Virus record (IMG/VR): IMGVR_UViG_3300020465_000007
Reading direction: 5' to 3' (one strand)
DNA from: an uncultured virus (IMG/VR IMGVR_UViG_3300020465_000007)
Lineage: Duplodnaviria; Heunggongvirae; Uroviricota; Caudoviricetes
Length of the DNA: 64,000 bases
Part shown: positions 22,101-49,800 of the stretch, piece by piece
Numbering within the stretch: position 1 is the stretch's first letter
Layout: every line of letters starts with the position of its first letter
Made by a program: the position numbers and the translations under genes
Notes under the pieces: model-generated
What the model was told of the DNA's origin: nothing
Databases searched by the model: none
Seen by the model: the letters and a program-made list of their open reading frames with translations, nothing else

Positions 22101-23684
22101 ATGAAACTTGGATTTAGAAGTACTGGAACTTATACTGGTGATACTTTTATATGGCATGAAAATACTGGAACTGATGGTCAAGGTAGAATGGCATTTTGGA
22201 CAGAAACAGGTGGTACTGCTTATGAGAGAATGAGAATTGATCATAATGGTAATATCGGCATCGGCACCTCATCACCAAATACACCACTTCATACATATCA
22301 AGCAACAGCTGGTAGTAAAGTTGCAGTATTTCAAACTGCTGCAAGTGGTCATACACAAGGTATTACAATTGGTAGTGGTACTAATGGTAGTAATGGGAAA
22401 GGACTTCATGTAGGTTATGGTCAGGGAATTAATAGCGGATACCTTGATGCTTACGATTGGGATGGTGGTGCTTATCAAAAACTTAAAATAAATGACTATT
22501 TTACTTTTAATGCACAATCTGGATTTGGTATTAACCAAGCAACTCCAGCTTATAAATTAGATGTAACTGGAGATGGTAGATTTACTACTAATTTACTAGT
22601 AAACGGAAACATAAGTGGTTCATCATCTTCAACTGGTTCGTTTAGTAGTTTAAGAGTTGATAGTTTTGATTTTGTAGGTACACATGCAAATCAAGATAGT
22701 ACAATTGTTCTTGGAAATGGTGCTGGTGCTAATTTAGCTGCCACAGCTACTTATGATAGTAATAATGGTATTATAATTGGAACTAATGCCGCTGCTACCT
22801 TACAAAGAACTCATGGTTCTATTATAATAGGGTATGGTCCATTAAGTGAATATAGTGGTGGTACTGGTACATTTAATCGTAGTGTTGTAATTGGATATGA
22901 GGCAGGTAAAAAAGTTTCCAATGGTAGTGATAATGTATATATAGGTAGTCTTGTAGCTTCTGTTGGAACTGCAGCCGTACTTCGTAATGTAGCTATTGGT
23001 TCAGAAGCTTTACAAAAGGCCGCCTCATCATATAATACTGCTGTAGGTATGAGTGCAGGTAAGAATGCTACTGGAGATGGTGGTACATATTTTGGTGCTT
23101 TTTCAGGTAATGCTGGTGGAGGTGCTAGAAATACCTCAATTGGATATAGTGCGGGAACTAATATTAGTAGTAATACTTCTAATGAATCTGTATTTGTTGG
23201 TTATATGGCTGGACAATATGATTCAGCAGGTTCAAATTTAACACATACTGCACATTCTGTAATCTTAGGTCATGATGCACGACCAGTTGCTAATCAAAAT
23301 AATCAAATTTTAGTAGGTGCGGATGTAGTTGGAACAGGAGCTAATCACACCGTAATAGGTAATTCATCTCAAACTCAAGTTACATTTGGTGGAAATGCTT
23401 TAATAAGTGGTTCTGTTGCTTCAACTGGTTCGTTTGGAAGAATTGAAACCGCTGGAAACCTTGTACCTAAAGTGCATAACACATCAAACTTAGGTTCAGA
23501 ATCAAATAGATGGGCTAACATATATTCTGCTGACCTTCAATTAAGTAATATGGATAATGATATAGGAAATGAAATTGATGGCACAAAAGGTTCCTGGACC
23601 ATACAGGAAGGTAGCGATGACTTATATTTATTGAATAGAAAGAATGGAAAAAAATACAAGTTTAAACTTGAGGAGATAACTTAA
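19176..23684 (+). CDS. Long tail fibre/adhesin protein (1502 aa)
   Basis: GxxGIG and ISGSSTSTGSF repeats; N.AIG/NTAVG beta-roll-type repeats near the C-terminus; terminal RWANIYSADLQLSN...WTIQEG..DLYLLN domain recalled from phage fibres. Confidence 0.82.
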   Translation: MGVKVTGQFEPAGAFSIVDGKDVSGHITGSNISGSATGTGSFGKLLGDGSSLTGIAGYTVANSSNNRILTSVDSINANAEANLTFDGSTLGVTGDLNIGSGDFFVDDSTGHIGFGTTSPNISSITGRAMTLNAPAGGYAIFEFAENGARQGNINHYGDDLTIYNNVNGKLELGTNNSIRLSIAAGGDVTLTHDLAAANLSVAGNITHTDNATTKIAFDTNEVQMFSNNNERLKVADGVVNVIAMLSGSGEAEFRQNLLVDGNITGSSNLKIAGNISGSSTSTGSFAHVHIPDGTSGLGIGNDSDLLLYHNGNHSYIKDNGTGNLYVQGGTQTFQNAAANKTMMVLNAANSVDLHYNNSKKFETTNTGVSVTGGMVVSGDSIFQGSLTAKELIVSSSVLNVTQSFSSGSTIFGNSTDDTHLFTGSVNITGSATATSFIGDGSQLTGLTPASITTYNSAADNRIITSVNSTTVQGESNLTFDGSTLVVNGAIDLSGDIDVDGTLEADAITVNGSTLSSVIQGTTVNLASKVTINNDTTSNLAWPVVFHIRTGGIGTENALGDDTGVLTYTPGFQTLTVPKIAANLTGAVTADNNFTVTGQTGSFSNTLEVKKYRTVTNSTSNFGDIANFANGADAIASIESWNAHNASNAVARLSLKSSRSNNDTHYHIARGSYRSYTSNGNPALELVVGTALGYNITHGTSPRLTMDTSGNIDIHQNLEVLGNISGSSTSTGSFGKLLGDGSSLTGLSSFTVANSSNNRILTSVDSSNGNAEANLTFDGSTLGVTGAITSTTTGSFSRVEIGGGGSKAGWDTKLWLKGTTSAATTLHIESTNISAVSALRFETNGNDWYWAAGGSSQGYYPNKMYLYNESTGIAPITFTNDGKVGIGNNNRSPSYQLDNNGTFRTAGKAYFENFVSITPNWGRFGVGMDGFNDPQYTIHAKIPNGVGGNTVSSANLMNNNTMGIVVENANNAANTGMKLGFRSTGTYTGDTFIWHENTGTDGQGRMAFWTETGGTAYERMRIDHNGNIGIGTSSPNTPLHTYQATAGSKVAVFQTAASGHTQGITIGSGTNGSNGKGLHVGYGQGINSGYLDAYDWDGGAYQKLKINDYFTFNAQSGFGINQATPAYKLDVTGDGRFTTNLLVNGNISGSSSSTGSFSSLRVDSFDFVGTHANQDSTIVLGNGAGANLAATATYDSNNGIIIGTNAAATLQRTHGSIIIGYGPLSEYSGGTGTFNRSVVIGYEAGKKVSNGSDNVYIGSLVASVGTAAVLRNVAIGSEALQKAASSYNTAVGMSAGKNATGDGGTYFGAFSGNAGGGARNTSIGYSAGTNISSNTSNESVFVGYMAGQYDSAGSNLTHTAHSVILGHDARPVANQNNQILVGADVVGTGANHTVIGNSSQTQVTFGGNALISGSVASTGSFGRIETAGNLVPKVHNTSNLGSESNRWANIYSADLQLSNMDNDIGNEIDGTKGSWTIQEGSDDLYLLNRKNGKKYKFKLEEIT
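19293..21529 (+). repeat. Intragenic ~164-nt direct repeat (19293-19456 and 21366-21529)
   Basis: Includes a 44-nt identical stretch GTAGCAAATAGTTCTAATAATAGAATTTTGACTTCCGTAGATTC at 19353 and 21426. Confidence 0.9.
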
Positions 23685-25248
23685 TGGCAATTCACGCAGC
23701 GGGTGGAGTTACAGGTTCCGCCACTTCAACTGGATCCTTTGGTAATATTGATATTACTGGTGATGCGATAATTCACGGCACACTTACTGCTCGTGAGATG
23801 GCGATTAGTTCATCTGTTACTAATGTTACTACTTTAGCTATAAGTGGTTCTTCAAAATTTGGTGATAGTATTGATGATAAACATCAAATGACTGGTTCTT
23901 TGTTGGTAACTGGTTCAATGGGTATAAATCAAACATCTCCAGCAGCTCTAATTCATGTAAAGGCAAAAACAACTTCTGATGATGCAGGAATAACCTGGTC
24001 ATCAGCACATCCTTATAATTGGTCAATAGGTTTAGACGCTGGAGCTGGTCATTATTTTAAAATAACAAATTCAGATACACCAGGTGGTGGAACTGATTAT
24101 ATGAGTTTTGGTGGTCAAAGTGTTACTTTCCCAAGTGGAGTAACTCAAATTAATATGTTGGCCGACAATATTTATATCGGTAATGCAATTAGACATTATG
24201 GCGAGGCAGATGTTTCAATAGAAATGACATCAAATCAAATAGAATTTCAAGCTGATGATCAATCTATGATACTTACCCCAAATCATTTAAGTGGTTCATC
24301 TACCAATCCTAAAGGTTTTAGTGGTTCATTTAATCATGTAATTGTTGCTAATAAAATAACAGGTTCAGCAATTTCAACTGGTTCGTTTGGTAAATTATTG
24401 GGTGATGGTAGTAGTTTAACTGGTATATCAACATCACCATTTCCATTCACAGGTTCTGCTAATATTAGTGGAAGTTTAAATGTAAAACATCAAGGTAGAG
24501 AATTATTTAACATACAAGATAATTTCAATAGTGCAAATAGTGGTTCAGACCAAATATTATTTTCTATAAATAATATTGCAGGTGCACCAGTTTTACAAGC
24601 AGAAGCTTCAAGAAGTAGAGTATTAATAGGTGGTGTAAGTGGTTTAGAAACATTCTTCAAACCAAACGGTGATTATGTAGTACAAAGTAGTAGTCCTACT
24701 TCTGCATCTTTTGAAGATATAGTTTTAAATGGTACTAATATACATAGTGTATTTGTCAATGAGGGTGATATTGTGGGATTTCCATTTACAGCTTCACATG
24801 CTGGTGGTCCTGCTAAGGCTGGTATTCAAGGACCAGTAGAAATTTCAGGTAGTATACTCATTGAAACTGATTCAGCCAATAGTGGTTCAAGTTTATTTAG
24901 AGTAAAGGGTAATCATGGTAATTTATTAGAAGCAATTGATGATAAAAACATTGGATTATTTAGAGTTCCAAACCTTATTGGTTTTGATGCATTACATATT
25001 GATAAGAATTCCAATATTACATTTGATAATGGTGTAAATCCACAAGTAATAAGTGGTTCACTATATTCAACTGGTTCATTTGGTAGAGTGGTAGCCACTA
25101 AATTAGTAGGTGATGGTAGTGGAATTACAGGACTTACTTCAGCAGCTATTTCTACATATAATAGTGCCGCAGATAATAGAATTATAACTTCCGTTAACTC
25201 TACAACGGTACAAGGTGAATCAAATTTAACCTTTGATGGAACAACATT
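20524..25248 (+). repeat. ~100-nt repeat shared between two fibre genes (20524-20626 and 25146-25248)
   Basis: Both encode TYNSAADNRIITSVNSTTVQGESNLTFDG with mostly synonymous differences. Confidence 0.85.
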
Positions 25249-28200
25249 AGGTGTAACTGGAAATATACAAGCTACTAAAATAGGTTTAGGTCACTCTAAT
25301 ACATCAAATAGTGCAGCTGCCACTATATTAAATAAACAGTTAGAATTTTTACAATCAAGTGGCAATGATGGAAATACTGGTATTATTTTTAGTGAAGCAA
25401 GTCTTGGTGATAATTCATTTACTATCCAACACAATGGTGCACCAGCTGGAAGATTAAATTCATTAAAATTTAAGGTATATGGTGGAAGTACAGCCATGGA
25501 GTTATTTAGAGATAAAGCCTTAGTAATTAGTGGTAATATAACTGGTAGTAATTATAGTGGTTCAGCAACCTCAACTGGTTCGTTTGGCATGGTAGATGGT
25601 AGTGGTGGAGTAACAAGTGTATTCGGACCAGAAGTTGGAGTAAACTTATCGGCTGCAAATGTTGGAACAGGATTATCAGGTGGTAACACTAGTAATACTG
25701 GTCTTGTCCAAATATACGGTTCAGCTAATGCACAATTAAGACTCCAAGTTGCGGGTACATATCAAGGTGGAATGTACTATAATAGTAGTACAGCAATTGC
25801 AACATTTTTTAACGGTGCTATAGAACCAAATACTGGTGTTGGTGGTTTTAACTGGAGATCTGGTGGTGGTGCCACAGATTCAGGCGGTACGGAGTATATG
25901 AGATTGTGGGGTGGTAGACTTGGTATCATGAATAGTCATCCACCAAAAACCTTAACCGTTGGTGGTGATATAAGTGGTAGTGGTGCTCTTGAGATTGTAG
26001 GAAATATAACAGGTAGTGGAAATTTCAAAATAGCTGGAAACATAAGTGGTTCATCAACTTCAACTGGTTCATTTGGTAGAATAGAATCTACAAATGCAGA
26101 ATTTACTCATGGAAATGGTTTAACATTAACAAATAGCTCACAATTAAATTACATAAAGTTTAAGGATTCAACCGATAGAGCTCATTTAGGATTTTCTCAT
26201 GGTTCTAATGATGAATTTAATATTTGGATGCAAGAAAACGGTGCTATGAGATTTGCTACAAACAATACTCAAAGGATGGCAATAACTGCAACTGGCAATG
26301 TCGGCATCGGACACTCATCAGCACCAAACAATAGTGCAAAATTAGGAGTTGCTGGAAACATTAATGTAGGAAACGGACAAGCCTCATCAATAGTATATTT
26401 TGAAAATTCTGGTACAGATATGTACATTGAGGGAAATGCTAATAAATTAAATATCGGTAGTGTAGGTAATACACAAGCTGTAACATTTCCAGCAGGTGGT
26501 GGTATGCAAATGGATGCTGGAAATGTTAGTGGTTCAGCAACATCAACTGGTTCGTTTGGTAGGGTAACAGTTCCAACTGCTAAAAATGGTGTCAATATAG
26601 GTGCGATTCCTTCAAATTGGACATCTGAATTAAATATATTAGGTACACAATCCACAACTGGTATTAAAATTCAAGCACCATCAAGTGGAAATGCGCAAAT
26701 AAAAATGTATTCTAATGCTGGTGGTTCAAATAATGATTTTTGGTTCATACAAGCTACTAATGGTGGAACATTTGATATAGTAAATTACGGACCTGGTAGT
26801 TTTACCAATATGGTTTCAATTGCTGCGAATACAGGTAATACGACAATTAAGGGTAATCTAGAAGTTCAAGGAAGCTTGACTGCTAAAGAATTGATAGTAT
26901 CATCTTCTGTAACCAACATGGTTATTGCTGAAAAAAGTGGTTCAACAATATTTGGTGATGATATAGCTGATAAACATCAATTTACAGGTTCTTTAAATAC
27001 AAGTGGTTCTGCTAATGTATTAGGTCACTTACAATTGGGTGGAAATACAGAACCAACAGGTTTAACTGGTGAATATTTTTATAATTTACTTTCTTTAAAA
27101 AATGCATCTAATGCAGGAATGACATTTGAAAGACTCGGTAGTTCTCCAAAGAAAATACAAATTGGATTACATTCAAGTGGAGATTTTAGAATTGTTGATA
27201 CACAAGGGACAGATGCAATAAGATTTGCTATAAAAGATGGTGGCAATGTCGGCATCGGAACAGATAATCCTTCATCAACATTGCATGTTCTTGGTTCATC
27301 TTCAAGTGGAGTATCAACACCATTTAAGATTGTAGGGGGAACGAGTACATCAGCAGGTGGACTTAAATTTGGAGCATATAATGGTTCATTTGGTGGTATA
27401 TGGAGTGGAGAGATTGCTACTCCTGCAACTAGCAATTATGCTTTAGTTGCTAATTCTACAAGAACAGCATTAAATGCTGTTACGGATATTGCATTTTATA
27501 TTGGTGATTCTGGTAATAATTTTTATATGAATAGTAGTGGTATTGGCATTGGAAATACAAATCCAAGTACAAAACTTCAGGTAACGGGTACAGTAACCGC
27601 TACCGCTTTTGCAGGTGATGGTAGTAGTTTAACTAATTTACCTGCTTCACCAGCATTTCCATTTACAGGTTCCGCGGGTTTAAGTGGTAGTATAGCTATC
27701 AAAGATTTAACTGCTGCTACTGGTTCTACCATGTTATCTGTACAAGGTTCAGAAGGTACATTATTCAGCGTAGTTAATAGTATGACAGGTTCAATATTCT
27801 CAGCCAATACCGTTGCTGGTATTCCTGTAATAGAAGCTTTCAGTAATGGGGATGTTCATATAGGTCCTTCAGGTTCTTCATTTGCAAAATTATATTATAA
27901 TGGTCATTTACAATCATCTGGTAGTAGTGGTGGTGGTGGTGGAAGTGGAACTGGATTTCCATTTACAGGTTCTGCTGGATTGAGTGGTAGTTTAGAAGTA
28001 AAACATTTAACAGTAGCAACTGGTTCAACATTGTTATCCGTACTAGGTTCAGAAGGAAATTTATTTAGTGTAGTGAATAGTATGACAGGAAGTATATTTA
28101 GTGCAAATACAACTGCTGGAATTCCTGTAATAGAAGCTTTTAGTGATGGTGATGTTACATTTGGACCATTAACTTCTAAAATAAGTGGTTCATCAACCTC

Positions 28201-30085
28201 AACGGGTTCGTTTGGTGATTTAATTGTCGCTGGTAATACAATAACACTTGGTTCACAAGCGGATTCATTTATTTTCTTAGATGGTAGTGGTGGAAACACA
28301 TACTTTCATTATAATCACAATGATATAATTGATGTTTATACTGGCGGCGACATCGCTATGAGAATAAAAGATGATGATGTGGAGTTTAATGGTGGTATTA
28401 ATGTTGACAATGATATAATATCTACGGGTGCTAATAAAGTCATAAGTGGTTCATCAACTTCAACTGGTTCGTTTGGTAATGTAAAAGCACTATCAGAATA
28501 TAGTATGGAAGTTGCTGAATACATTACTCATTTTGAGGATGCAGATACTCACATTCGTTTTCAAAATAACAATCTTGATTTAACCGCAGGTGGTAATATG
28601 GTTAGATTAAATACTACAGGTTTAGGCATCGGGACCACATCTCCTTCAAATAAATTAACCGTAGAAGATGTTATTGGAATTAAAAGAAGTGGTGTTGCAG
28701 CTATAACTACCTTACAGATGACAGGTGCTGGATTGACTGTAAATGGAGCAAGTGGTTATCATGCTTTAATTATACAAGGAAATGGAACAGAATTTGTTAG
28801 AGTTAAAAGTGATGGCAAAGTCGGCATCGGAACTGCAACTCCGATGGCTATGTTAGATATTCGTGGAGTAAATTCTATAGGTCCATCTAATGGAAACGGT
28901 GGAAATCATACAGTACAAATTAATGATGAAACTACTGGTGGTGGTGCAGGTGTAGGTGGTGGAATAGGATTTGGTGGAATATTCCATGCAACAAATAATA
29001 CTTATAATACTATATTTTCAGAAATTAGAGGAATTAAAGAAAATGCTACTTCAAATAATTATGCAAGTGCTCTAACACTTCATACACGCGCTAATGGTGG
29101 TAATATTACTGAAAGATTGCGTATAGACAGTAATGGTAAAGTCGGCATCGGGACTAATAACCCATCTCAAAAACTTCATCTTCATGGTGGCCATATGTAT
29201 ATGCAAACTGGTTATGGAATAACTTGGAATAATGGTGATGCAAGTATTAATGCTAGAAGTGGTTATAATATTGCATTCAATACATATAATGGTTCAAATA
29301 ATACTGAAAAAATGGTCATACAGGGTAATGGTAATGTCGGCATCGGAGTCGCAAGTCCTGTAGATAAACTTCATGTTATTGGTAATATAAGAGCAACTGG
29401 TGATATAATTGCACAGAATTACATTGTAAGTTCATCAGTAACTCACATGACACAATCATTTAGTAGTGGTTCAACTATCTTTGGTGATACTTTAACCGAT
29501 ACACATAAATTTACTGGTTCATTAGATATTGTGATGAGTGGTTCAGATGCATTAACCATTGAGGGTAATACAGGACCATTATTTTCAGTTAGTGATGATG
29601 CAAGTGGTTCATTATTTACCGTAACAGATACCGCTGGCGTTCCTGCATTTGATATTGATAATCAATATAATATCACAATGGGTAATCCAGCAGAACCATT
29701 ACTGATTACAAAGGATAGTAGTGGAAATACAATAATAAGTGGTTCATCAACCTCAACTGCTAAGTTTGGTCAGTTTACAGAGGCCTCATCAATAGCATTT
29801 AAGACTAATGTTGAAACATTACAAAATCCATTGGATAAGATTTCACAATTAAGGGGTGTTACTTATAATTTAAAATCAAATAATGAACCAAGTATTGGTA
29901 TGATTGCTGAAGAGGTCAATGAGGTATTCCCAGAGTTGGTGGATAGAGATGATAGTGGCAACCCACAAGCAATGTCTTATACAAGAATGACAGCAGTATT
30001 GTTGGAAGCTGTTAAGGAATTAACAGAAGAAGTGAAAGAACTTAAAAAATCTAATATTTATAATAAATACAAGGATAAAGAATAA
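23684..30085 (+). CDS. Long tail fibre protein (2133 aa) with C-terminal S74-type intramolecular chaperone
   Basis: GNVGIG modules; C-terminal SSIAFKTNVE.L...LDKI.QLRGV.Y...IGMIAEEV..VFPELV...coiled coil. Confidence 0.85.
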   Translation: MAIHAAGGVTGSATSTGSFGNIDITGDAIIHGTLTAREMAISSSVTNVTTLAISGSSKFGDSIDDKHQMTGSLLVTGSMGINQTSPAALIHVKAKTTSDDAGITWSSAHPYNWSIGLDAGAGHYFKITNSDTPGGGTDYMSFGGQSVTFPSGVTQINMLADNIYIGNAIRHYGEADVSIEMTSNQIEFQADDQSMILTPNHLSGSSTNPKGFSGSFNHVIVANKITGSAISTGSFGKLLGDGSSLTGISTSPFPFTGSANISGSLNVKHQGRELFNIQDNFNSANSGSDQILFSINNIAGAPVLQAEASRSRVLIGGVSGLETFFKPNGDYVVQSSSPTSASFEDIVLNGTNIHSVFVNEGDIVGFPFTASHAGGPAKAGIQGPVEISGSILIETDSANSGSSLFRVKGNHGNLLEAIDDKNIGLFRVPNLIGFDALHIDKNSNITFDNGVNPQVISGSLYSTGSFGRVVATKLVGDGSGITGLTSAAISTYNSAADNRIITSVNSTTVQGESNLTFDGTTLGVTGNIQATKIGLGHSNTSNSAAATILNKQLEFLQSSGNDGNTGIIFSEASLGDNSFTIQHNGAPAGRLNSLKFKVYGGSTAMELFRDKALVISGNITGSNYSGSATSTGSFGMVDGSGGVTSVFGPEVGVNLSAANVGTGLSGGNTSNTGLVQIYGSANAQLRLQVAGTYQGGMYYNSSTAIATFFNGAIEPNTGVGGFNWRSGGGATDSGGTEYMRLWGGRLGIMNSHPPKTLTVGGDISGSGALEIVGNITGSGNFKIAGNISGSSTSTGSFGRIESTNAEFTHGNGLTLTNSSQLNYIKFKDSTDRAHLGFSHGSNDEFNIWMQENGAMRFATNNTQRMAITATGNVGIGHSSAPNNSAKLGVAGNINVGNGQASSIVYFENSGTDMYIEGNANKLNIGSVGNTQAVTFPAGGGMQMDAGNVSGSATSTGSFGRVTVPTAKNGVNIGAIPSNWTSELNILGTQSTTGIKIQAPSSGNAQIKMYSNAGGSNNDFWFIQATNGGTFDIVNYGPGSFTNMVSIAANTGNTTIKGNLEVQGSLTAKELIVSSSVTNMVIAEKSGSTIFGDDIADKHQFTGSLNTSGSANVLGHLQLGGNTEPTGLTGEYFYNLLSLKNASNAGMTFERLGSSPKKIQIGLHSSGDFRIVDTQGTDAIRFAIKDGGNVGIGTDNPSSTLHVLGSSSSGVSTPFKIVGGTSTSAGGLKFGAYNGSFGGIWSGEIATPATSNYALVANSTRTALNAVTDIAFYIGDSGNNFYMNSSGIGIGNTNPSTKLQVTGTVTATAFAGDGSSLTNLPASPAFPFTGSAGLSGSIAIKDLTAATGSTMLSVQGSEGTLFSVVNSMTGSIFSANTVAGIPVIEAFSNGDVHIGPSGSSFAKLYYNGHLQSSGSSGGGGGSGTGFPFTGSAGLSGSLEVKHLTVATGSTLLSVLGSEGNLFSVVNSMTGSIFSANTTAGIPVIEAFSDGDVTFGPLTSKISGSSTSTGSFGDLIVAGNTITLGSQADSFIFLDGSGGNTYFHYNHNDIIDVYTGGDIAMRIKDDDVEFNGGINVDNDIISTGANKVISGSSTSTGSFGNVKALSEYSMEVAEYITHFEDADTHIRFQNNNLDLTAGGNMVRLNTTGLGIGTTSPSNKLTVEDVIGIKRSGVAAITTLQMTGAGLTVNGASGYHALIIQGNGTEFVRVKSDGKVGIGTATPMAMLDIRGVNSIGPSNGNGGNHTVQINDETTGGGAGVGGGIGFGGIFHATNNTYNTIFSEIRGIKENATSNNYASALTLHTRANGGNITERLRIDSNGKVGIGTNNPSQKLHLHGGHMYMQTGYGITWNNGDASINARSGYNIAFNTYNGSNNTEKMVIQGNGNVGIGVASPVDKLHVIGNIRATGDIIAQNYIVSSSVTHMTQSFSSGSTIFGDTLTDTHKFTGSLDIVMSGSDALTIEGNTGPLFSVSDDASGSLFTVTDTAGVPAFDIDNQYNITMGNPAEPLLITKDSSGNTIISGSSTSTAKFGQFTEASSIAFKTNVETLQNPLDKISQLRGVTYNLKSNNEPSIGMIAEEVNEVFPELVDRDDSGNPQAMSYTRMTAVLLEAVKELTEEVKELKKSNIYNKYKDKE
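27655..28156 (+). repeat. Tandem ~200-nt duplication with 300-nt period
   Basis: FPFTGSAGLSGS...GSEG.LFSVVNSMTGSIFSANT.AGIPVIEAFS.GDV is encoded twice (27655, 27955). Confidence 0.9.
30054..30061 (+). promoter_or_regulatory. ATATTTAT putative late-promoter motif inside the 3' end of ORF 23684
   Basis: 23 nt before ATG 30085, followed by AAGGA. Confidence 0.35.
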
Positions 30086-33000
30086 TGGCAGATTATATCA
30101 TATCAGGTTCCGCGGTATCAACAGGTTCGTTTGGACATGGATATTTTAACAGTAAAGTCGGCATCGGAGAAACAAGTCCTGATGAATTATTACATATTAA
30201 ATCAGCCGTAGATGCTAAACCAGTAATAAAATTGGAAAACTCAGGAAATAATTCAAATAGTCCACAATTAGTATTTTTTAATAGTAGTACTGCAAACGAT
30301 AATGATATTACAGGAACTATAAGACTTAAATTAAATAATGATGCCTCCGAGGAAACAGAGTATGCGACAATTTATGGTAGGGCTATAGATGTTTCAAATG
30401 GTACGGAGGATGGAGAATTACATTTTAGAACGATAAATGGTGGTAATTTAAATACTACAATGCTTTTACAATCAGGTAATGTCGGCATCGGGACCACAAA
30501 CCCTGGTGCTAAACTTCACATTAACGGTGGAGCTTGGAATACTTCATTAATAATACAATCAAATGCAGGTTCAGGTGGAATAAAATTTTTAGATAGTGAT
30601 AATAATTTTGACGGAGCTGTTTATGCCGTCAGTAGTATGATAGGTTTCTTAGATCCAGGTGGTGACTGGATGTTAAAGGCTGTTAATGATAGTCATATAA
30701 GTTTTCATACAAACGGTGCAACTGAGCACATGAGAATTACAAGTACAGGCAATGTCGGCATCGGAACAAATAATCCTGATGGAACACTTCATGTTCATAC
30801 TGCAACTGCAGGTTCTATTACTGCTAATACTACTTATGATGATTTAGTTATAGAAAATAGCACACATGCTGGTATATCAATTTTAACACCCAATAATGCA
30901 CATGGTGGTATTTTATTTGGTGATCCACAAGATGATGATATTGGAAATATAAAGTACGATCACTCTACAAATAAATTAATGTTTACTGCTGCTGCGACTT
31001 CAAATCCTGGTTTTTCAATGACTAGTAATACTGTAGAATTTGGGGCTGATATATTAAAGGTGAGTGGTTCATTAACCTCAACTGGTTCGTTTGGAAGAAT
31101 TTATGCAGGTGGAAATATAGTATTTAATGGTGCTTCAAACAAAATATACACATATCATTTAAATAATGCTAACTATATTGATGCTAAAAACTTTCAAGCT
31201 AATACCTCATCAGACATAAATTTTCAAAATGCCGTAGGTCCTGCTAATATAGTTTCTGTTGGAAATGTTGTAAGGTTAAAATCAAAAGGTTCTACTCCGT
31301 TAGTTGCTAGTGGAAGTTTTATTGGCATAGGAATAGCGACACCTACTCACACACTCCACTCAATTTCTACTGATAATAAAGGATTCTTTTTCTATAAAAA
31401 TCTTGGAAATAACGCCGATACATTAAACGAGTTTAGTTCGTATTACTCTCTGTCTATTTTAAACAGAAATGCTGGTTCATATCTTAATTTTGGTGGTGAT
31501 GCTAATAGAACAGATATACAAGCTACAGATGGAGCTGGTTCAGCTACAGCAAAAATATTAGCTTTAAATCCATTTGGTGGCAATGTCGGCATCGGAGTTA
31601 CAAATCCAGATGATTATAATGAATATGGACATAGGTTGGTTGTTAAAGATTCTGTAAATGCTGGTATTTCAATAATTTCAGATACAAATGGTGATGGTAG
31701 TTTATATTTTGGTGATGGAACTGGAGCAGCTACTTATAGAGGTTGGTTGGGATATAATCATGCTAACGATTCAATGTCAGTTGGTACTGCAGCTGCTGAA
31801 AGAATTAGAATTACTAATGGAGGCAATGTCGGCATCGGTGGTACAACTCCAGGTGCAAAATTAGAAGTTTATGGTGATGGTGCTGCACTAAATCAAATAA
31901 GATTAAGGCATAATGGTTCAGGAACTAATGGAGTGTTAGACCTTAGTGCTACTTCCACAGCTGCAAATATAATAGCAAATTACTCAAGCACAGCGATTCC
32001 ACTAAGATTTTTTACAGGTGCCGCAGAAAAGATGCAAATATCTGCTACAGGAAAAGTTGGCATCGGGGAAACCAGTCCAGACAAAGAGCTTCATTTAAAA
32101 GCAAGTGAACCAACCTTTAGAATTGAACAAACAGCAGAGGCTAATAAATATTTTGATATGCAAGTTAATACAGGTGGTGGAACAAGTAGATTAAAATTTA
32201 GTTCTGAAGCACAATCCAATACACTTGTTATTAGTAATAATGCGAGGGTGGGTATAAATCAAGTCTCAGCAGCAGAAGCCTTAGATGTGGTTGGTAATAG
32301 TTTAATATCAGGAAACTTAACTGTAGGTGGTAATTTAACTGCAAAACAATTAATAGTAAGTTCTTCTGTAACCAATATGACAGTTGCTCAAGCAAGTGGT
32401 AGTACAAAATTTGGTGATACTGTTTCTCTTGATACACACCAATTTAGTGGTTCACTAAAAGTTACTGGTTCAATAACATTAAATGGAAGTGCTGTAACCT
32501 CTGGTGGTGGTGGTGGTTCAAGTGTTTGGTCAGAAGCTTCAAGTGAGGCATATTATACTGGAAGAGTGGGTATTGGTACAAATAATCCAGATAATTCCAG
32601 AAGATTACATATTCGTAATACGGATGATACTCGTGGAATATTAATTGAAAATACAAGTGCTACAAGTTATTCTGAATTACATTTGAAGGCCAATAGAGAA
32701 TATAGAATAGGTACAGGTGGTTCTAGTGCAGCTGCTGCAGCAGTAGATAGATTTTATATATATGATGCTACAGCTGCAGCTCATAGATTTACAATAATGA
32801 GTTCAGGCAATGTCGGCATCGGAAGTACAACTCCAGGTTATCCTTTAGATGTTAATGGTGTAATTGCTTCAACAGCTGCAGTTGGTGTATTTAGATTAGT
32901 TGGTACATCAAGTGGAAGAGTTTATGACATAAAATCAAATGCTGGTCGTTTTGAAATTAGAGATGTGGATAATGGTCAAGATAGGTTAATTGTTGGTACA

Positions 33001-34791: not shown

Positions 34792-34792
34792 T

Positions 34793-35461: not shown

Positions 35462-35462
35462 T

Positions 35463-36152: not shown

Positions 36153-36153
36153 T

Positions 36154-36858: not shown

Positions 36859-36860
36859 TT

Positions 36861-37547
36861 ATGGCTGGATTTAGTGGTGGTAGTATTCCTAGTCTTGGTT
36901 TAGAACAAATTTATGATAGGGATAATCACCTAAATGGTGCTGGTAGTAGTGGATATGGTAAATGTAGAGTTACATCATTAAGTTTACCTGGAAATCCATC
37001 TAGTTGGGCAGATAATATTACTGCATTGACTATTATTACTGTAATAAAAATTAACGGAAATGATAATGGTTATGCTTATCATCCTATTAACAAATGGAAT
37101 AGCTCACATGCAAATAATGCAAGTTTTATTTTATATCATTTTCAAAATTATCAAGGAACTAATCCAAATAGTGCAAACAGAATGACTTGGTATGGAAATA
37201 ATACAGCAAATGATGGAACTGGTTGGGGTGGTTTATGTGGTTCAGGTAACTATCATGCAACTCAAGGAAAAACACACATGATTATAGCACAATTTAACTC
37301 AACAGATGGTGGACAAATGTGGACAGGAACAGATGGTTCAATAAGTAAACATGGTGGAAGAGGTAGTAGTGGTGCTAGAGGTCAAACCACTTCAAACTCA
37401 ACTAGTTCAGCTTTAAATGTTTATGGACCAACCACTATTAATTCTATACAAGAACAATTATTTACTGCATTTTGGAGTAGAGAATTAACCGATACTGAAA
37501 TAGAACAAGTTTTTTTTGATAGCAAAAGAAGATTTAATATGGAATGA
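36861..37547 (+). CDS. Divergent LamG-like protein 4
   Basis: 228 aa, same size as neighbours; C-terminal FWSRELTDTEIEQVF...KRRF matches the family terminus. Confidence 0.6.
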   Translation: MAGFSGGSIPSLGLEQIYDRDNHLNGAGSSGYGKCRVTSLSLPGNPSSWADNITALTIITVIKINGNDNGYAYHPINKWNSSHANNASFILYHFQNYQGTNPNSANRMTWYGNNTANDGTGWGGLCGSGNYHATQGKTHMIIAQFNSTDGGQMWTGTDGSISKHGGRGSSGARGQTTSNSTSSALNVYGPTTINSIQEQLFTAFWSRELTDTEIEQVFFDSKRRFNME

Positions 37548-37562
37548 TTATTTGAAAATCAA

Positions 37563-37570
37563 ATATTTAT
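37563..37570 (+). promoter_or_regulatory. ATATTTAT putative late-promoter motif
   Basis: Intergenic, before the 3104 aa fibre gene. Confidence 0.5.
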
Positions 37571-37602
37571 TTATAACAATATAATAGTTTTGGAAGAAAA
37601 AT

Positions 37603-40600
37603 ATGGCTAAAGACATTCTAATTGTACCAGGTTCCTCTAATATACATTTTAGTGGATCAGCGGTCAATGATATAAAATTAGAAACACAAGATAGTGGAAG
37701 TGTTGCATTTACCTCTAATAGTGGTTCAATATTAACACTTACCAATAGTTTTACTGGTTCATTATTTAGTGTTGGCGATGTTAGTGGTGTGCCTATATTA
37801 GATGTCAATAGTGATGATACCGTTACATTAGGTCAATTTTCCTCTCCATTAAAAGTCTTTACAAATGCAAGTAGTCATACCATTATAAGTGGTTCAAGTA
37901 CTTCTACTGGTTCTTTTGGTAGGTTACAAGCAACCACAATAGCTGGTAATAGTCCATTAAATATAGAATCTCCAAATTTAACAGGCAATGTCGGCATCGG
38001 AGCAACTAGTCCTGCGACAGAGCTTCAAATTGGGGATTATACTGATGCAGCAGAAACAATAACAATTGCCACTTCAAATGAAGGAACAGGTAGAATAAAC
38101 TTTTACGATAACAACGCTACCGAAGGTGGTAGTATAAGGGTAGTTGGTGCAAGCTTAGGTTCTAAAATGCATTTTGCTAATCGTTGGAATGTAGATGTGG
38201 ATAGAGTTACATTTGACTTAATAACAGGTAAAGTCGGAATCGGGACCGCAAGTCCTTCATCAACCTTGCATGTAAAAAGTACATCTGCAGATGGATACAT
38301 TATTGCTGAATCATCTCATGCGGCTTCAAGTGGAATATTAGAAGCTAGGTCGGTTGCTAATAGAGATAGTTATGTGATGTTTAGAGAAGGAACATCTGTA
38401 AAGGCTCAAATATTCAATGATTCAAGTAATGATGCCTTAGTATTGACAGATGGTTCTAATTCAAATGTTATGCATATTAAAGGTGGAAAAATTGGTATTG
38501 GAACAGTAAGCCCAGCTACTAATTTTCATATCCACAATGCTAGTAGTTATGCACACATGCAACTTAGTAGACCTACAGATACAACAACAATTGGGTTTAT
38601 AGGATTTAAAAATAATACTGGTAATAATATTGCGATGATAGAGGGATTTAGTCATAATGCGACTGCTGGTAAGTTAATAATGGGTGTAAATGGCACAGCT
38701 AATGCTATAACAGTAGAGACAAGTGGTAATGTAACAATGCCGAAAAATTTAACTGTACTAGGTTCATTAACTGCACAAGAATTTATAACAGAATTGAACA
38801 CAACAACCATAATTGCCACAAGTGGTTCAACCAAATTTGGTAATACAAGTGATGATACACATCAAATGACTGGTTCATTAAAGGTAAGTGGTTCACTTAC
38901 TCTCCAAAATGGATTTAGTCTTACTCCAACTACAAGTAATTATGCACAATTAGGTGGTTGGTTGAATGTTGGTACTATTGGACTTTTTAGTGGTACAAAT
39001 GGTGCACACATATATCCAAATACTGCATCCGATTACGGTGCTTGGAGAATAAACGGATCTAAAGGTGGTTGGGGTGGTATAACATTTGAAGTGGGTGGTG
39101 TATATAATACATTAATGTCCAACGCATCTACTATGGGTTTTTACAATGATACAGATAATGAATGGATGATTTCTGCAAATAGAAATACTGATGTTAAGCT
39201 TTATTATAATGGAGTACAAAAACTTGCAACTTCAAGTACTGGAGCAACTGTTTCTGGAAATCTTAGGTTAGATGGTGGTGGAAACGCAAGTGATCCACTA
39301 CTCACAACTTTGTCCGATACAAATACAGGAATATACTTTCCAGGTTCTGGTAAGACTGGTGTAGGTGGTACTGGTGGTTTAGTAGTTGAAAATGGTGGTA
39401 CTTTTGGTGGCAATGTCGGCATCGGGACCGCAAGCCCAGCACAAAAATTTCATGTTTACGGAGCATCAGATACATTTCACAGAACCGACGCAGGTGCATC
39501 AAGTGGTATTCAATATCAATTGTGGCATGGTGGGACACAAACAGCAACTATTAATTCTAATACAACCAATATTTTTTCAATCCATGATGGTGCATTTGGT
39601 GGAACAAATGTTTTTAATATAAAAGACGGAGGCAATGTCGGTATCGGAGATGCCACACCAACAGAAGGAAAATTAGTAGTAGCTGGAACAGGTGCTTACA
39701 ATACTCCACCACTTCATATATCAATGACGGACTCGAGTGAGTGGAATCATTTTGTAAATATGGTTGATAGTAATCTTACTGCTGGTGAAAATGGAATTAT
39801 AGTTTTTGGACAAGAATTAGATAGTAAAAATGCAGCTTGGATTGGTTACAAACATAGGTCAGATCATGGTAATGATAATCAATTAACATTGGGATTTTGG
39901 GGTGCTAATAATTTAGTTAATATACTTCCTACTGGAAGAATGGGCATTGGAACAGAAACTCCTTCACAAGCACTTCATGTGGTGGGTAATATTGCAGTTG
40001 GTACTGGTGGAATTAAGCTATTAACCAATGGTCAACTCTTAGAATTTGGAGATGGTAATGTTCATATAGATAGGGCTGGTAATTCAATGAATCTTCATGC
40101 ATATGCAGGACACATTTTTTCAATAAATGGTAGTACTGCAATGACGATAGACAATTCTGGCCATCTTGGCATCGGGGCAACTCCATCAAACTTACTACAA
40201 GTAGGTTCTCATGTTCATGTAACAAGTGCAGGATTGGTTGGTATTGGTTTAGCCGCACCAGAAACAGATTTACACATTTCAAATACCTCACCAGCAGTAA
40301 GATTTACGGATGAAAATGTATCAAATCTAAAACATCAAATTATAGGTGGTGGAGATGCTGGATTAGAATATTCTGCAGACTTTAATAATGTAGCTGCTGG
40401 TTATCATAGATGGGATATTAGTGGTGCTGAAAAAATGAGATTGATTGAAAGTGGGGATCTTGGCATTGGAACAAGTGTACCATTAAACTGGTTACACATG
40501 GCACAATCAACTGGTGGTAGTCATTTTAATGAGGGTATTAGAATAGTTAGGGGTGAATTTGCAGGAAATGCTACACAATACTCTATAATAAACAATTATA

Positions 40601-43600
40601 ATGGAACTTTGAACCTTATCAACAGAGGTGGTTCTAATCATGGTTATTTCAATTTCTACTCTACTGCTGATGGTTCAAATTTAAAAACTATGTTACACAT
40701 CGATGCTCGTGAAGATCAATACATAACACCAACTGGTAGTGCGATATCATATAATGTTAAGGGTGCAGGTGTTGCTTCATTATCAAATTCAAATACCCAA
40801 ATGACAGTTTCAGGCAGTTATGTAATTTACCAAGATTTACAAGAAAAGACTGTTGTTCATAGTGGAAATGATGATTATCAATTGATGAAAACTTTCACAC
40901 CATCAAAAGGTGGTAGAGTAACTTTACAATTTGAGGCATATATTACATCTGGTACATATTATTGGGCATTTAGAATTGGTAGAAATGGTGATGGTAGAAA
41001 TGACAGTAATACTGGTGCCTATCAATCATACGATACACATTTTCAGGCATTACATAATAAACCATTTAGTGGTTATTTAGATCCATCAAATGCATCCTCT
41101 GTTCATGCATATAGAAAATATAATTTAAATATTAGAAATCTTCGTGCTGGTGAAACTGTTGATTTATATATGGTTTCATCTACATCTGGTGGTACACCAC
41201 AAACTGGTAATGGTCAAACATTATATTTGAAAAATTTTAAAGTTTTAAATGATGCTCCATCAGCTGAAATAAATCCAATTCACAGTTTGGGAAAATATGT
41301 TGGTATTGGGATCACAACCCCATCTTCTGAATTAACTGTAAAGTCTACACATAATGACCATCATCAAGTTTTTGAAGTATTAGATTATAGTGGAGATGGT
41401 TTATTTAATATTAGACAAAGTGCAAATGATGCTTTATTACGAGCATATGCAGATGGTGGAGTACAAAAAGTACAAATTCATACAGGTGGAGTTTCATATT
41501 TTACTGGTGGTAATGTCGGCATCGGAAATACAAGTCCTCCAAAAGCCTTAACCGTGGCTGGTGAGATTAGTTCAAGTCTATCTGGTAATAATAATTCAAC
41601 CTTTAGGTCTACGAGTGGTGGTGCTAGAATTATTTTAGACTCTACTACAAATGAAACTACAACTGGTATTAGGTTTGCAGAAGCTGGTGCAATAGAGGGT
41701 AGTATAATTTACGACCACTCTGATGATTCATTAGATTTTAGAACTGGCGGTGCTGATGCAACAAGAATGACAATTGATAATGCAGGCAATGTCGGCATCA
41801 ACAATACAGATCCTCAAGGTAGACTTCATATTGATGGTGCTACAAATGGTATAAACTTTGGTCAGATGGCTAGTTGGAATAGGTCATTTATGGGAATGAA
41901 TGTAAAGGCTAGTTCTACTAATGGAAGATTAACAAGGATTGCATCATCCACTACTGATTATCCTGTAGCGATTGCCTTTGGTTATCAAGATGTAGCTGGT
42001 TTTGGTAGTGAAGATAGTAAGGGTGGAATAAACTTTATAACGGTTGGAAGTAATTTAAGTGGTGATATTGATCCTGATACATATTCAAGAATGTATATAC
42101 ATAAGGGTGGTAATATTGGCATAAATGATACAACACCATCATATAAATTAGATGTAAATGGAAATGGTAGATTTACTGGCAAACTTTTCTTAAATGCTGC
42201 TGAGGCATTAGAAACAGGTGGAATAAGAGGACAGGCTTTTGGTGATCAAACTGGTGACTTTATACAATTATATGAAAGAGTAAATATAGGTTATCCAGGA
42301 GGATGGGGAGCAGCCGCTGCATCAGCCCCAGCACAGGGATTATCAGTATATGGAAGTGTTCAGGTAGGAAGAAATGGTAGTGGTGTTTTACAAATGAACG
42401 GAACTACCGTTATTGATGCTAGTAGAAATATAACAAATGCTGGAACATACAATGGTATTAATATTAGTACTTTGAATACTTCAGCTGTAAAAACAACTGG
42501 AGTTCAAACAATAGCTGGTTCAAAAACATTTTCAGGAATAATCAATTCTAATAGTCATTTAATTATGGCAGATGGATTTTCTATTAAGGGTGGTTCTGGT
42601 CAAGAACAAATTATTAATATGAGCGGCACTACTGTTAATATCGCAGGTGAAGGTAATGCTACTACAGTTGGTGGAAATTTAACTGTTGCTGGAACAATAA
42701 CTGCACAACAATTTATTACTGAATATACAACTGATACCGTTATTGCAACAAGTGGTTCAACAAACTTCGGTAATTCATCAGATGATAGACATGACTTTAG
42801 TGGTTCTTTAGCTGTAAGTGGAAGTGGTGGATTAACAGTTACTTCTGCACCATCAAACAATCATTTAAAGCTCGTTAGTGCTGGTACTGGTGGTAATGTT
42901 GCTATAAGATTTGATGTAGAAAAGACTGCAACAAATTATGTTGATTGGCAAATAGGAGCTCAAGGAATAGCGGCAAATGCATTCACAATAGGACATTCAA
43001 CTGGTAATGGTAATTTAACATTTAATGCGGCCAACACCGATTTAACCATATTATCTTCAGGAAATGTCGGCATCGGGACCACAAGTCCTGGCTCAAAGTT
43101 AGAAATTTGGCAAGGTGTTGGAAATGGAAGTTCTTATGATGTAATAAAGATAGATGGTAATACTGGTAACTATGGTGGAATGTGGATTGCTGGACAATGG
43201 GCTAATAGTCAACAAGGTCGAATTGGATTTTGGGGTTCAAGTACAGCTGCAGGGACTAGAGGTGTAGCATTAATAGGTGATGGTGGCACCACACCGCATG
43301 TATTTTTAAATAGTGGAGGGCAGCTTGGCCTCAACACTACAAGTCCAGTAGATAACTTCCATGTTATGGGAGCTAGTGCTGAAGGTGCTGTAGGAAGTAC
43401 TCATGCTGATAGTATTGCATTATTCCAAAATAATGTTAATGCTTCCGACCAATGTTTTATCACAATAGTTGGCGGTACAACTGGTGGAGCTGGTATACAT
43501 TTCGGTGATAAAGATGATAGTGATGCTGGTGTTCTAAAATATGACCTTTACACTGCTGGTGGTGGTGGATTTGAATTTTGGGCAGAAGGTAGTGAGAGAA

Positions 43601-46600
43601 TGTCTATATTGGCTAACGGAAATGTTGGCATCGGGACCACAAATCCTGGTAGAAAATTTGTTGTATCAACTGGTAGTGATACTTATGCACAGATAGAAAC
43701 TACTTCAGCAACAAATGATGCTTGGTTGAGATTTCATAATGTAGGTGATAATAATGAAGCTCTTAATTATAGAATAGGTAGAACACATGATGGAAGGCTT
43801 GACTTTGGTTTAGGAAATGGTACACATTTGATGTCACTTATATCAACAGGATTGGGTATCCATACACACCAACCCTCTTTTCCATTAAGTGTTGGTAGTA
43901 ATACAAATGAAGCAAGAGTAGAAATTGGAACTTCTGGCCAGACAACTTGGCAATCTAATGTTTATTCAGTACTTACAGTAGGTGTAAGTGGAAGTCATGC
44001 AATTACACAAGATGGTAGTGGAAATTCACAACAATGGTTTAATGTTTATGATACTGGTAATAAATACCGAGCTCATGCTGGATATGGTGCAAATTGGATG
44101 TATAATGTTAGTACTGGAACATTAGCTTTTAGAAATACAGACACAACTTCTACCGCAGGTTCACAAATTACAGATTTAACACCAAAATTTAGTATAGATA
44201 AAATTGGTAAAGTAGGCATTGGAACAGATACTCCTGTTGAAGCTATTACAATTCGTGGAACTAGTTCTGGTACTGATGGATTTCATTATCCTGCAATTGC
44301 TGGTTATACTACAACTACAAAACTATGGGCTTTGGAACAACATTTTGGAAATGAAGGAAGATTAGGGTTGTATTATGATGGTAATTTAAAAGTATTGATG
44401 AGGGCATCTGGATCTTCATATATTAATAGTGGTGCTACAATGAATTTTGGTGTTGGCACAGCTTCACCATCATATAAATTGCATGTTGTTGGTAGTGCAT
44501 TTGCAAAAAATCTTACATTAAGTGGTTGGAGTAGTGGAGATGCACTAACATTGAATTATGGTAATGCGACTGGTACAGTAGAGGCTGTAACATTTAGGTC
44601 TAATGGTGGTGTAAGTGGTAATATTAAAAATGTTCTTGTATCTGCAAATAGTGGAGATTTAATTCTTAATTCATCTACTAATACAAACCAATTAACTCTT
44701 TATCGTGACGGCAATGTCGGCATCGGAGATACAACTCCTACATACAAATTAGATGTTGCAGGAACTGGTAGATTTGTAGGTGATGTTACAATCGGTACTG
44801 GTTCTGATTCAAGACTAAAGTTTGTTAGTGGAACATCAAGAGCACACATCGGACCTGACCAAAATGTTGAACTACGATTTGGTTATGCAAACGCCTCTGA
44901 TAAGAATTTTTACCATAACACAACAAATGTTGCAAAAATAAATGGAAGTGGTATAACAGTTCCTAGTGGTAATATAAGTGGTTCATCAACTTCAACTGGT
45001 TCGTTTGGTAGAGTAGACCTACATCAAGGATTATATTTCAATAGAGAGGCTGCTGGTAATGCTATTTTTGAAGGCCGTGCTCATTATCAATCACCATTTG
45101 TAAAATTTGATGCATACAATAGAGGTAGGATAGCATTTGGTGCTGATGTTTCTAGTCAAGCATTCTTTTTACTTGATGGAGAAATGACTCATACATGGAC
45201 AGGTGCTGAACTATATGGTGTTCACATTAACACTAAAATGTGGCCAAATGTAAGTAGAGATGGGGTTGTTTTAAGAGTACAAGGAGAAATAGAAAAAAAT
45301 AGTAATGCTGGTGTTCATAATTGGTTTAAGGGAACAGATTTTAGGGCACCAACTGTAGGTAATGCTACTGCTACAGTTACAAATACTGCCACGGTTCATA
45401 TAGATGGTGCTATGACCGTTGGAACAACAAATAATTATTCATTGTATAATGCCAGTACCGCTGATTCATATTTTAACGGTAATGTCGGCATCGGTTCAAC
45501 AAATCCATATTCAGCTTTAAATGTCCGCGGAGCTAATGGTGCAAATGGTAATGCTAAAAGATTAGTTGCATTTTTTGATACAACTTCAGCCGCAGCAGGA
45601 ACTGGAGCTGGAATAGCATTAGGTGGATATACCAACGGAACTAGTGGGGATATAAATGATTTTGCTAATATTCAAGGTATAAAGGAAAATGGAACTGCTG
45701 GTAACTATGCGAGTGCTTTAACTTTTCAAACTCGTGCAAATGGAGCAGGTACTCAAGAACAGCTGAGAATTTCAAGTGCGGGTAATGTCGGCATCGGGAC
45801 AACAAGTCCTGGTTCAACACTTCATGTTCATAAAGCATCGGGTCCAACTTATTTAAGAATATCAGATGAAGCTGCAGCAAATGGTTTAGAATTTGGATAT
45901 GAAAATGGTGGTTTTACAAATGCTAGTATTTATAATAGATATTCAAGTAATGCTGCATCCGCAATATCTTTTGGATTTGGAACACCGAGTTCTGGTAATG
46001 TAGTGGCGACAATGCTACAAAGTGGCAATGTCGGCATCGGAACAAATAGTCCTGATACTGATTTTCATTTAGAAAGAACCTCAAACTGTACTATGCAAGT
46101 TGAAGCTGGTGGTTCAAATCAAACATCATTAATATTAAGAAGTGGTGGATTGAGAACCAATACCGATACAAGTAGAATATGGTTTCAAGGTGGTTCAAAT
46201 ACTCAAGCATTAATAGAAGCTCAATCTGGTGGTTCTTCTGCTATAGGTTCTTTAGCATTTCATACAAATGATGGTACGAGTTTGACGGAAAGAATGCGAA
46301 TTAGTAGTGTAGGTGATGTCGGCATTGGAGTAGCTCCAAATGCAAATTTCAAAACATATATTTATGATAATACTAGTGATGCTAATGCTTGGGTAATGAA
46401 TGTCTATCAAGATGGTGCTGCTGGTAATGGTGTAAGAATAGATGTTGATAGTACGGATACAACTGATTTTATTTTACAATGTGGCGCTAATGGTGGTTCA
46501 ACAGAAGTTCTTAATGTGATGGCAGATGGCCAAGTTGGTATTATGGATACAACACCATCATATCCATTAGATGTAACTGGTACAATAAGAGCAACTTCTG

Positions 46601-47884: not shown

Positions 47885-47892
47885 GAAATACA

Positions 47893-48141: not shown

Positions 48142-48155
48142 AATAAGGGATTATA

Positions 48156-48848: not shown

Positions 48849-48850
48849 TT

Positions 48851-49537: not shown

Positions 49538-49551
49538 AAATTAAAACTTTT

Positions 49552-49559
49552 ATATTTAT
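49552..49559 (+). promoter_or_regulatory. ATATTTAT putative late-promoter motif
   Basis: Intergenic, before SD AAGGAG and ATG at 49581. Confidence 0.5.
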
Positions 49560-49580
49560 TAGTAATAAGGAGATTTAACA

Positions 49581-49760: not shown

Positions 49761-49800
49761 AAAAAAGTCTTAAAAAAATACATTTTGGGATTTTTAAGTT

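Follow-up and report, generated by a model that had tools for sequence, protein, structure and literature searches.

Recombination between conserved motifs in the distal fibre and adhesin genes of T-even phages was described by Tetart et al. (1996 and 1998), according to passages of Trojet et al. 2011 (PMC3157838), the motifs being the His boxes of gp37 and the glycine-rich motifs of gp38. Here we compare with that system a stretch of 64,000 nucleotides from an uncultured virus of the Caudoviricetes (IMG/VR IMGVR_UViG_3300020465_000007), the whole of which is referred to as the window. It covers a block of structural genes on one strand, from a large marine myovirus, with a head protein, a sheath, a baseplate hub and four giant fibre open reading frames (ORFs 1 to 4). 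The element in question is an 11-mer, GTCGGCATCGG (the core), which is the DNA spelling of V-G-I-G in a GNVGIGT..P repeat that opens each shaft module (~65-330 aa) of the fibres.

Both in the T-even system of those passages and here, short conserved motifs separate variable segments of host-recognition proteins, and the exchange junctions lie in or next to the conserved motifs (here for 7/7 left module ends, a small sample judged with a post hoc distance window). A T4-like link is also provided by the capsid and sheath, which match thousands of T4-type records at low identity. Unlike in the T-even case as given in the cited passages, the motif is GNVGIGT..P in place of GxHxH or the glycine-rich motifs of gp38, the joints number in the tens and are spread over four giant genes (1500-3100 aa), and the joint is locked at synonymous rare codons that are uniform within a lineage. 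In its logic the present joint works like the T-even system; homology to gp37 or gp38 is not claimed. An earlier note on this DNA, made from the sequence alone, had proposed a diversification route distinct from invertons and diversity-generating retroelements (DGRs). That proposal does not hold as to novelty, as the route is not new in kind, conserved-motif recombination having been described in T-even phages.

Shufflons and invertons resemble the present case in that short DNA repeats border alternative C-terminal or module segments of an adhesin. Their repeats are inverted and a dedicated recombinase gene is required nearby. Unlike these systems and integron-like cassettes, the copies here are all direct (27/27 with up to one mismatch), no recombinase is present among the 28 ORFs of the window and the spelling varies between phages. 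DGRs likewise diversify phage receptor-binding proteins; they depend on a reverse transcriptase together with a template repeat, and change adenine-templated positions with no module swaps. Concerted evolution by gene conversion is similar in that silent sites agree better among the paralogous copies of one genome than among copies from different genomes, although here the uniform stretch is only ~20-27 nt per repeat and the rest of the unit diverges freely. Searches of the open-access and bioRxiv literature for concerted evolution together with tail fibre gave eukaryotic and bacterial gene families only, and no paper on nucleotide conservation of the NVGIG/GNVGIGT motif was found in the same literature. 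To regard the present case as a dedicated, new kind of system is probably wrong, and the finding does not establish a new enzyme system.

The core occurs as 20 exact copies in the window, all on the + strand, compared with 0 in 100 dinucleotide-preserving shuffles. When one mismatch is allowed there are 27 copies, 27/27 on the + strand, where 0.03 would be expected. The 20 positions given in the earlier note were all recovered, as was its statement that the copies are direct and in the V-G-I-G frame: 20/20 exact cores are in frame 0 of their own ORF and encode V-G-I-G. About ten near copies had also been proposed, of which the seven labelled as near cores in Table 1 have one mismatch; the one at 41791 has two mismatches and encodes VGIN, and is treated here as decayed. 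It had further been stated that the cores are found in the four giant fibre genes, and none is found elsewhere in the window, but the exact copies are confined to three of the four (ORFs 2, 3 and 4), with ORF 1 having only a near copy plus a GTA GGT ATA copy at 21822. A Chi-like signal distributed over the whole window was considered and rejected for these 64 kb: the 7-mers and 8-mers of the core are found in the fibre genes only, except for one CGGCATC at 17524. The four fibre ORFs contain 38 core or core-like joints, which are separated by divergent bodies. The spacing of neighbouring cores is 195-330 nt in 19/37 intervals, in line with the 195-324 nt noted previously as common.

The spelling of the core is conserved at the DNA level, and the protein does not require GTC GGC ATC. 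The 28 ORFs contain 32 VGIG motifs, all in the fibre genes, and 20/32 are spelt GTC GGC ATC, whereas in the non-fibre ORFs GTC accounts for 3.2% of the Val codons, GGC for 2.1% of the Gly codons and ATC for 7.8% of the Ile codons. The product of the three codon shares is ~5e-5 per motif, which gives 0.002 expected among 32. The claim that these codons contradict the A/T-ending bias of the DNA is therefore supported by the counts, and the remaining VGIG copies do include the GTA/GTT GGT ATA/ATT spellings that had been reported.

A codon alignment was made of 37 repeats of the relaxed form [VILA]G[IVL]G..P. Rare C-ending synonymous conservation was found only in the GTC (24/30), GGC (30/37) and ATC (28/37) columns. 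Pairwise synonymous identity in these Val, Gly and Ile columns is 0.61-0.68, compared with 0.40-0.53 expected, which is the largest excess of all columns, while in three conserved columns nearby, Pro at +7, Leu at +11 and Val at +13, it does not exceed expectation. The comparison of synonymous-site conservation with codon usage, which the earlier note had suggested, thus places the excess in the V, G and I codons alone. Recent duplication, for which equally conserved flanks had been named as the mark, is ruled out because the synonymous identity of the flanking Pro, Leu and Val is at background. The next Gly, although invariant as a residue, is GGC in 1/37 repeats (GGA in 21 and GGG in 11) and the Asn before the core is AAT in 20/20, which rules out that C-ending or accurate codons are simply preferred in general; what is constrained are individual bases at individual positions, not a codon class. 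The first Gly (GGC 13/31), the third Gly (GGG 11/37) and the following Thr (ACC 7/17) are likewise enriched in guanine and cytosine (GC). Synonymous neighbours are linked, GGG occurring with ACC and GGA with ACA, as would be expected if DNA were copied in short tracts. ORF 3 and ORF 4 are connected by core-centred tracts of 33-69 nt with 84-97% identity.

Codons of this kind might instead have a translational cause, either a rare-codon pause for co-translational folding of the modules or the use of C-ending codons for accurate decoding. Three consecutive rare codons do open each structural repeat, and in other phages too the motif has more GTC, ATC, AAC and GGC than the ORF in which it lies, both of which speak for such a cause. 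We nevertheless consider a translational cause very unlikely, since the two invariant Gly use opposite codons (GGC in 30/37 vs 1/37), the Asn is AAT throughout and the Gly positions of another phage locus (L222) are GGC, GGT and GGG in fixed order in 5/6 repeats. Moreover, under the wobble rules the G34 tRNAs that decode the abundant GGT and ATT also serve GGC and ATC, which need not be slow, and neither version predicts the mosaic boundaries at the core that are described below. The predicted RNA pairing of the core is also unchanged when an AT-ending spelling is placed in the same flanks (0.67 vs 0.65), and a role in RNA structure is similarly unsupported.

Other phages encode the same protein repeat with spellings of their own. 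Viral contigs were sampled without regard to codons by a degenerate GNVGIGT pattern, which gave 206 true GNVGIGT..P repeats. The spelling GTCGGCATC was found in 19/206, equal to GTAGGTATT, and in 1/65 repeats from contigs of <38% GC; a universal spelling of the motif is rejected on these counts. The silent sites of the motif are GC-enriched against the background of the same ORF, and this holds for phage contigs of three GC classes. For contigs of 38-45% GC, the motif and ORF background values are 0.37 vs 0.12 for GTC, 0.35 vs 0.15 for ATC, 0.46 vs 0.15 for GGC at the first Gly, 0.32 vs 0.09 for GGG at the third Gly and 0.108 vs 0.0024 for the codon triple. Single loci have uniform spellings: GGCAACGTCGGTATCGGGACG in 5/6 repeats of L222 (the sixth differs in the first two codons and has Asp at the first Gly position), GTCGGGATT in L181, GTAGGTATT or GTAGGTATA in L207 and GTCGGCATT in L237.

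The trend was examined formally in 43 loci with 127 repeats, chosen without regard to codons, using GC-matched between-locus pairs. Synonymous identity over G-N-V-G-I-G-T is 0.56-0.87 within loci compared with 0.31-0.52 between loci. For Pro, Leu and Gly the within-locus identity is at the between-locus level, and for Val it is near it (0.30-0.43 vs 0.28-0.37). This fits concerted evolution limited to ~20-27 nt, and it does not fit a single recognition sequence. Among contigs that were selected by 17-mer, and are to that extent ascertained, the spelling of the window is dominant (20/22 in L427 and 9/15 in L447).

Fibre modules are shared with relatives as a mosaic whose boundaries lie at the cores. 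The nucleotide similarity of the fibre bodies to fibre-sharing contigs is restricted to isolated single modules, and patches of this kind (76-90% identical) were identified in five contigs: G005, 3300012953_000719 (L429), L535, L539 and L542. Where the left end of a patch is not cut by the end of the contig, it lies at -9 to +3 nt from the start of a core (7/7). That interval covers 2.4% of the positions of ORFs 2-4, giving a binomial P of ~4e-12 (2e-10 with L539 and L542 counted as one event) for a distance window chosen post hoc. In ungapped views the identity stays at chance level as far as GGNAAT-GTCGGCAT and is high beyond it. The right ends of the patches are at, or <=~45 nt from, the next core or decayed core, e.g. 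the IGIN at ~42113. The order of the modules is scrambled in L429 (45478, 38765, 43618, 41785), and a module of ORF 3 is found in a gene of G005 that occupies the place of ORF 4. The idea that cores flank divergent, swappable modules is thereby strengthened, as single modules of relatives begin, and mostly end, at a core with their order or gene changed. A search for breakpoints in relatives had been recommended in the earlier note, which took fixed module order as evidence to the contrary; module boundaries were found at the cores, within the limits of the small sample and post hoc window, and module order was not fixed.

The exact core is present in 6 copies in L400 and 3 in L401; L539 has 6 cores and G005 (23.7 kb, 37% GC) has 13, all forward in G005. 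When L400 and L401 are compared with window 46614-54533, their identity across the sheath is 88-91%, and ORF 4 is common to them only from 46614 (the S74 domain) on. The whole module array of ORF 4 has thus been replaced in L400 and L401 with the core spelling kept. Other relatives were identified by their capsid proteins (54-79% identical), of which G002-G004 and G006-G009 have 0 cores and G010 has one; in G002, a complete 216-kb genome, there are no VGIG..P repeats in the 60 kb after the capsid gene.

Such a mosaic could be a passive by-product of crossovers that are random, or occur at any similarity, from which selection keeps those chimeras that are joined at domain borders, with the spelling a frozen accident that plays no part in promoting exchange and is maintained by occasional conversion. 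In its favour, the structural repeat starts where the core lies, and it is there that selection for folding would place the surviving junctions; the spellings also differ between lineages as accidents would. Frozen accidents, however, should decay at synonymous sites like the neighbouring conserved columns; the core is kept in relatives in which the flanking genes are 10-35% different and the modules have been replaced; and the GC-enriched spelling in three GC classes points to a directional process. A passive origin is therefore judged unlikely.

Contigs of four public runs were also placed on the region (assembled contigs only; 15 of 97 joints and 32 of 1326 pieces are listed). Among the pieces listed for run X13, homology of one contig begins exactly at the core at 30157 and that of another stops at 41525. 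No core-to-core joint is present among the 15 of 97 joints listed. Most of the listed joints are at STGSFG and have the look of multi-mapping, the contigs sharing this motif of 40-50 nt; they give no evidence either way on rearrangement at cores. The runs also bear on the near core at 43624, where base 43626 (the third base of the Val codon) is C in contigs of 3/4 runs, making the core exact, with the fourth run, X5, having no cover. In run X4 this change occurs together with five others at 43579-43590.

The STGSFG sequence belongs to a second codon-locked motif, TGSF, with 19 copies in the fibre genes (19290-44995), mostly spelt ISGSSTSTGSFG and with up to 37/37 nt in common between genes. 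In 11/19 copies the Ser codon is the rare TCG, although TCG makes up 1.9% of the fibre Ser codons, and 11/17 TCG codons are in this motif. Many contigs of run X13 share only the 40-50-nt TGSF stretch and diverge on both sides of it, with a depth of 228-553 vs ~10 elsewhere. Since two unrelated motifs, the core and TGSF, behave alike, a general process is favoured over a specific site.

This bears on the possibility that the core is a dedicated recognition site, TCGG-CA-TCGG, at which a site-specific recombinase or nuclease of the phage or its host, encoded outside the window, moves cassettes. Its strict orientation and exactness (27/27 on one strand), the internal TCGG..TCGG repeat of the 11-mer, the module boundaries at the core and the dominance of the same 11-mer in contigs without detectable similarity to the fibre region of the window (L427, 20/22) are what such a site would show. 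The single orientation, however, follows from the reading frame, and the same protein repeat has other uniform spellings elsewhere (GTCGGTATC, GTCGGGATT and GTAGGTATT). The pattern is general over 43 loci, the TGSF motif is codon-locked too despite its different sequence, no recombinase family was found among the 28 window ORFs and no core-core joint is among the 15 of 97 run-contig joints listed, all of which make a dedicated site highly doubtful. Of the original suggestion of a DNA-level crossover or recognition site, a DNA-level joint tied to module exchange stands, but TCGG-CA-TCGG as the specific recognition site does not, in view of the other spellings and the second locked motif.

A scan of the 28 window ORFs for recombinase families found none, consistent with the earlier note, which had seen no recombinase in the window. 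A reverse transcriptase (RVT_1) was found in 0/4 capsid-relative records, and self-comparison of the window gave no long repeat pair beside the fibre genes. A gene for a RecA/UvsX-like protein is present in both complete capsid relatives (G002 and G010). For the 17-mer GGCAATGTCGGCATCGG melting is predicted at 53 °C, compared with a median of 40 °C, which places it in the top 0.5% of the fibre 17-mers.

Synonymous conservation in the window is localised to the core, uniform spellings are specific to lineages, and mosaic boundaries lie at cores. The reading that we prefer, with a probability of about 0.62, is that the core provides, in frame, a short GC-rich patch of homology, and that fibre modules are joined there through general recombination (homologous or by short homology), through gene conversion or through template switching. 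The patch would be unusually GC-rich and extend over up to 17-22 nt including its flanks, and modules would be joined at it within a gene, between paralogous fibre genes and between co-infecting relatives. Because every copy is direct and in the same frame, any core-to-core crossover would give an intact chimeric fibre. Repeated exchange through the patch would keep the synonymous sites uniform within a lineage, as in concerted evolution, while the module bodies diverge. The GC-ending spelling may be due to repair that favours GC, or the GC-rich version may anneal better. We infer the enzymology, the reason for the GC bias and the direction of cause, as the patch may be a joint because it is conserved or may be conserved because it is a joint.

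Several points weigh against joining at a homology patch. No recombination event was directly observed, the public runs being assembled contigs only, and the mosaic patches number about seven or eight in five contigs, with the distance window set after they had been seen. Random crossovers with selection for chimeras that fold could also give boundaries at module edges. A length of 11-22 nt is short for RecA-type recombination, and the AAT of Asn in 20/20 is not predicted by a simple model of GC-biased conversion. The capsid relatives that encode RecA are without the core array (0 and 1 copies).

It is also conceivable, if improbable, that the codon-locked joint is not just a passive patch but a selected, self-propagating standard interface, serving as a GC-rich microhomology or being targeted by a nuclease that has so far escaped notice, which is kept by many environmental phages in their GNVGIGT fibre repeats and in which lineage 'dialects' decide the exchange partners. 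If true, receptor-binding proteins would have, in addition to invertons and DGRs, a third and programmed route of diversification.

Table 1 Positions in the window of the cores, the modules shared with other contigs, examples of the second motif and the main structural genes.
Feature	Position	Strand	Remarks
Exact core GTCGGCATCGG	26300..26310	+	
Exact core	27248..27258	+	
Exact core	28820..28830	+	
Exact core	29141..29151	+	
Exact core	29336..29346	+	
Exact core	30157..30167	+	Homology of a run X13 contig starts exactly here
Exact core	30481..30491	+	
Exact core	30754..30764	+	Inside 69-nt tract 30731-30799, 84% identical to ORF 4 45764-45832
Exact core	31585..31595	+	
Exact core	31828..31838	+	
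Exact core	32812..32822	+	
Exact core	34129..34139	+	
Exact core	37990..38000	+	Left edge of module common to L539 (78%) and L542 (76%)
Exact core	39415..39425	+	
Exact core	41515..41525	+	Homology of an X13 contig stops at last base of core, 41525
Exact core	43066..43076	+	
Exact core	44716..44726	+	
Exact core	45484..45494	+	Left edge of module 89.5% identical to one in 3300012953_000719
Exact core	45787..45797	+	Right edge of the same 89.5% module of 3300012953_000719
Exact core	46030..46040	+	
Near core ATCGGCATCGG	22254..22264	+	Peptide IGIG; sole near core of ORF 1
Near core GTTGGCATCGG	32056..32066	+	
Near core GTCGGTATCGG	33799..33809	+	Left edge of module 83% identical to G005 13404-13705
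Near core GTCGGAATCGG	38233..38243	+	Right edge of module common to L539 and L542
Near core GTCGGTATCGG	39637..39647	+	
Decayed core GTCGGCATCAA	41791..41801	+	2 mismatches; peptide VGIN; left edge of module 82% identical in 3300012953_000719
Near core GTTGGCATCGG	43624..43634	+	Left edge of module 79% identical in 3300012953_000719
Near core GTCGGCATTGG	46318..46328	+	
Module shared with G005	33795-34096		83%
Module shared with G005	40178-40472		88%
Module shared with 3300012953_000719 (L429)	41785-42122		82%
Module shared with 3300012953_000719 (L429)	43618-43845		79%
Module shared with 3300012953_000719 (L429)	45478-45831		89.5%; core to core
Module shared with L535	28625-28803		84%
Module shared with L539	37981-38249		78%
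Module shared with L542	37984-38255		76%
STGSFG/TGSF motif, examples	26035-26080, 28441-28487, 44967-45017		
Major head protein	4336-5997		
Giant fibre ORF 1	19176..23684	+	1502 aa; STGSFG-type repeats; near core 22254; ordinary-codon VGIG 21822
Giant fibre ORF 2	23684..30085	+	2133 aa; 5 exact cores; C-terminal Peptidase_S74 chaperone domain
Giant fibre ORF 3	30085..34791	+	1568 aa; 7 exact cores
Giant fibre ORF 4	37603..46917	+	3104 aa; 8 exact cores; Peptidase_S74 at aa 3005-3058
Tail sheath	50227-52545		

The only Pfam domain identified in the fibre ORFs is Peptidase_S74, at the C-termini of ORFs 2 and 4. The C-terminal S74 part of ORF 4 matches the long tail fibre distal subunit 6f45_A (E = 5e-9), and its module region 45976-46632 (residues 192-410 of a 504-aa query) has a weak match to the solved chain 8ond_A, named bd2133 (E = 1e-4). 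ORF 2 contains a tandem duplication with a 300-nt period (27655-27856 vs 27955-28156, 80% over 202 nt) that has no VGIG cores at its edges. Small paralogous genes encoding ~225 aa follow the fibre genes (34793-35461, 48156-48848, 48851-49537 and also 36861-37547); three of these paralogues match PHROG 8510, 'virion structural protein', and they may be fibre tips, adaptors or assembly factors. The paralogue region also includes two stretches with 75% identity (35361-35572 vs 36052-36260) and the overlapping ORFs 35331-36152 and 36019-36858.

The capsid protein shares 55% identity with its counterpart in Microcystis phage Mel-JY01 and 52% with that in Flavobacterium phage immuto, with low-identity matches to >2500 T4-type records; the results for the sheath are similar. 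The GC content of the window is 30-38%, and no tRNA genes were found in it. One contig, G001, represents the same phage (99.9% identical to window 43919-64000) and gives no information on variation. The public runs that contain ORF 4 are labelled as marine, seawater or marine-plankton metagenome, with two exceptions that have a coded organism name. A megablast search of the GenBank phages with ORF 4 gave no match, a metagenome scan with the same ORF gave one identical and one distant contig only, and the gene downstream of ORF 4, used as a query, gave three loci.

Tail fibres decide which bacteria a phage infects. The spelling of the core is unusually direct sequence evidence that the joints of fibre modules are constrained or homogenised as DNA, beyond what the protein needs, and that relatives exchange whole modules there. 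The presence of the signature in 43 loci of unrelated phage contigs suggests a widespread and simple rule for rebuilding giant fibres, which could help to predict the exchangeable units of fibres and to read their recombination history from metagenomes.

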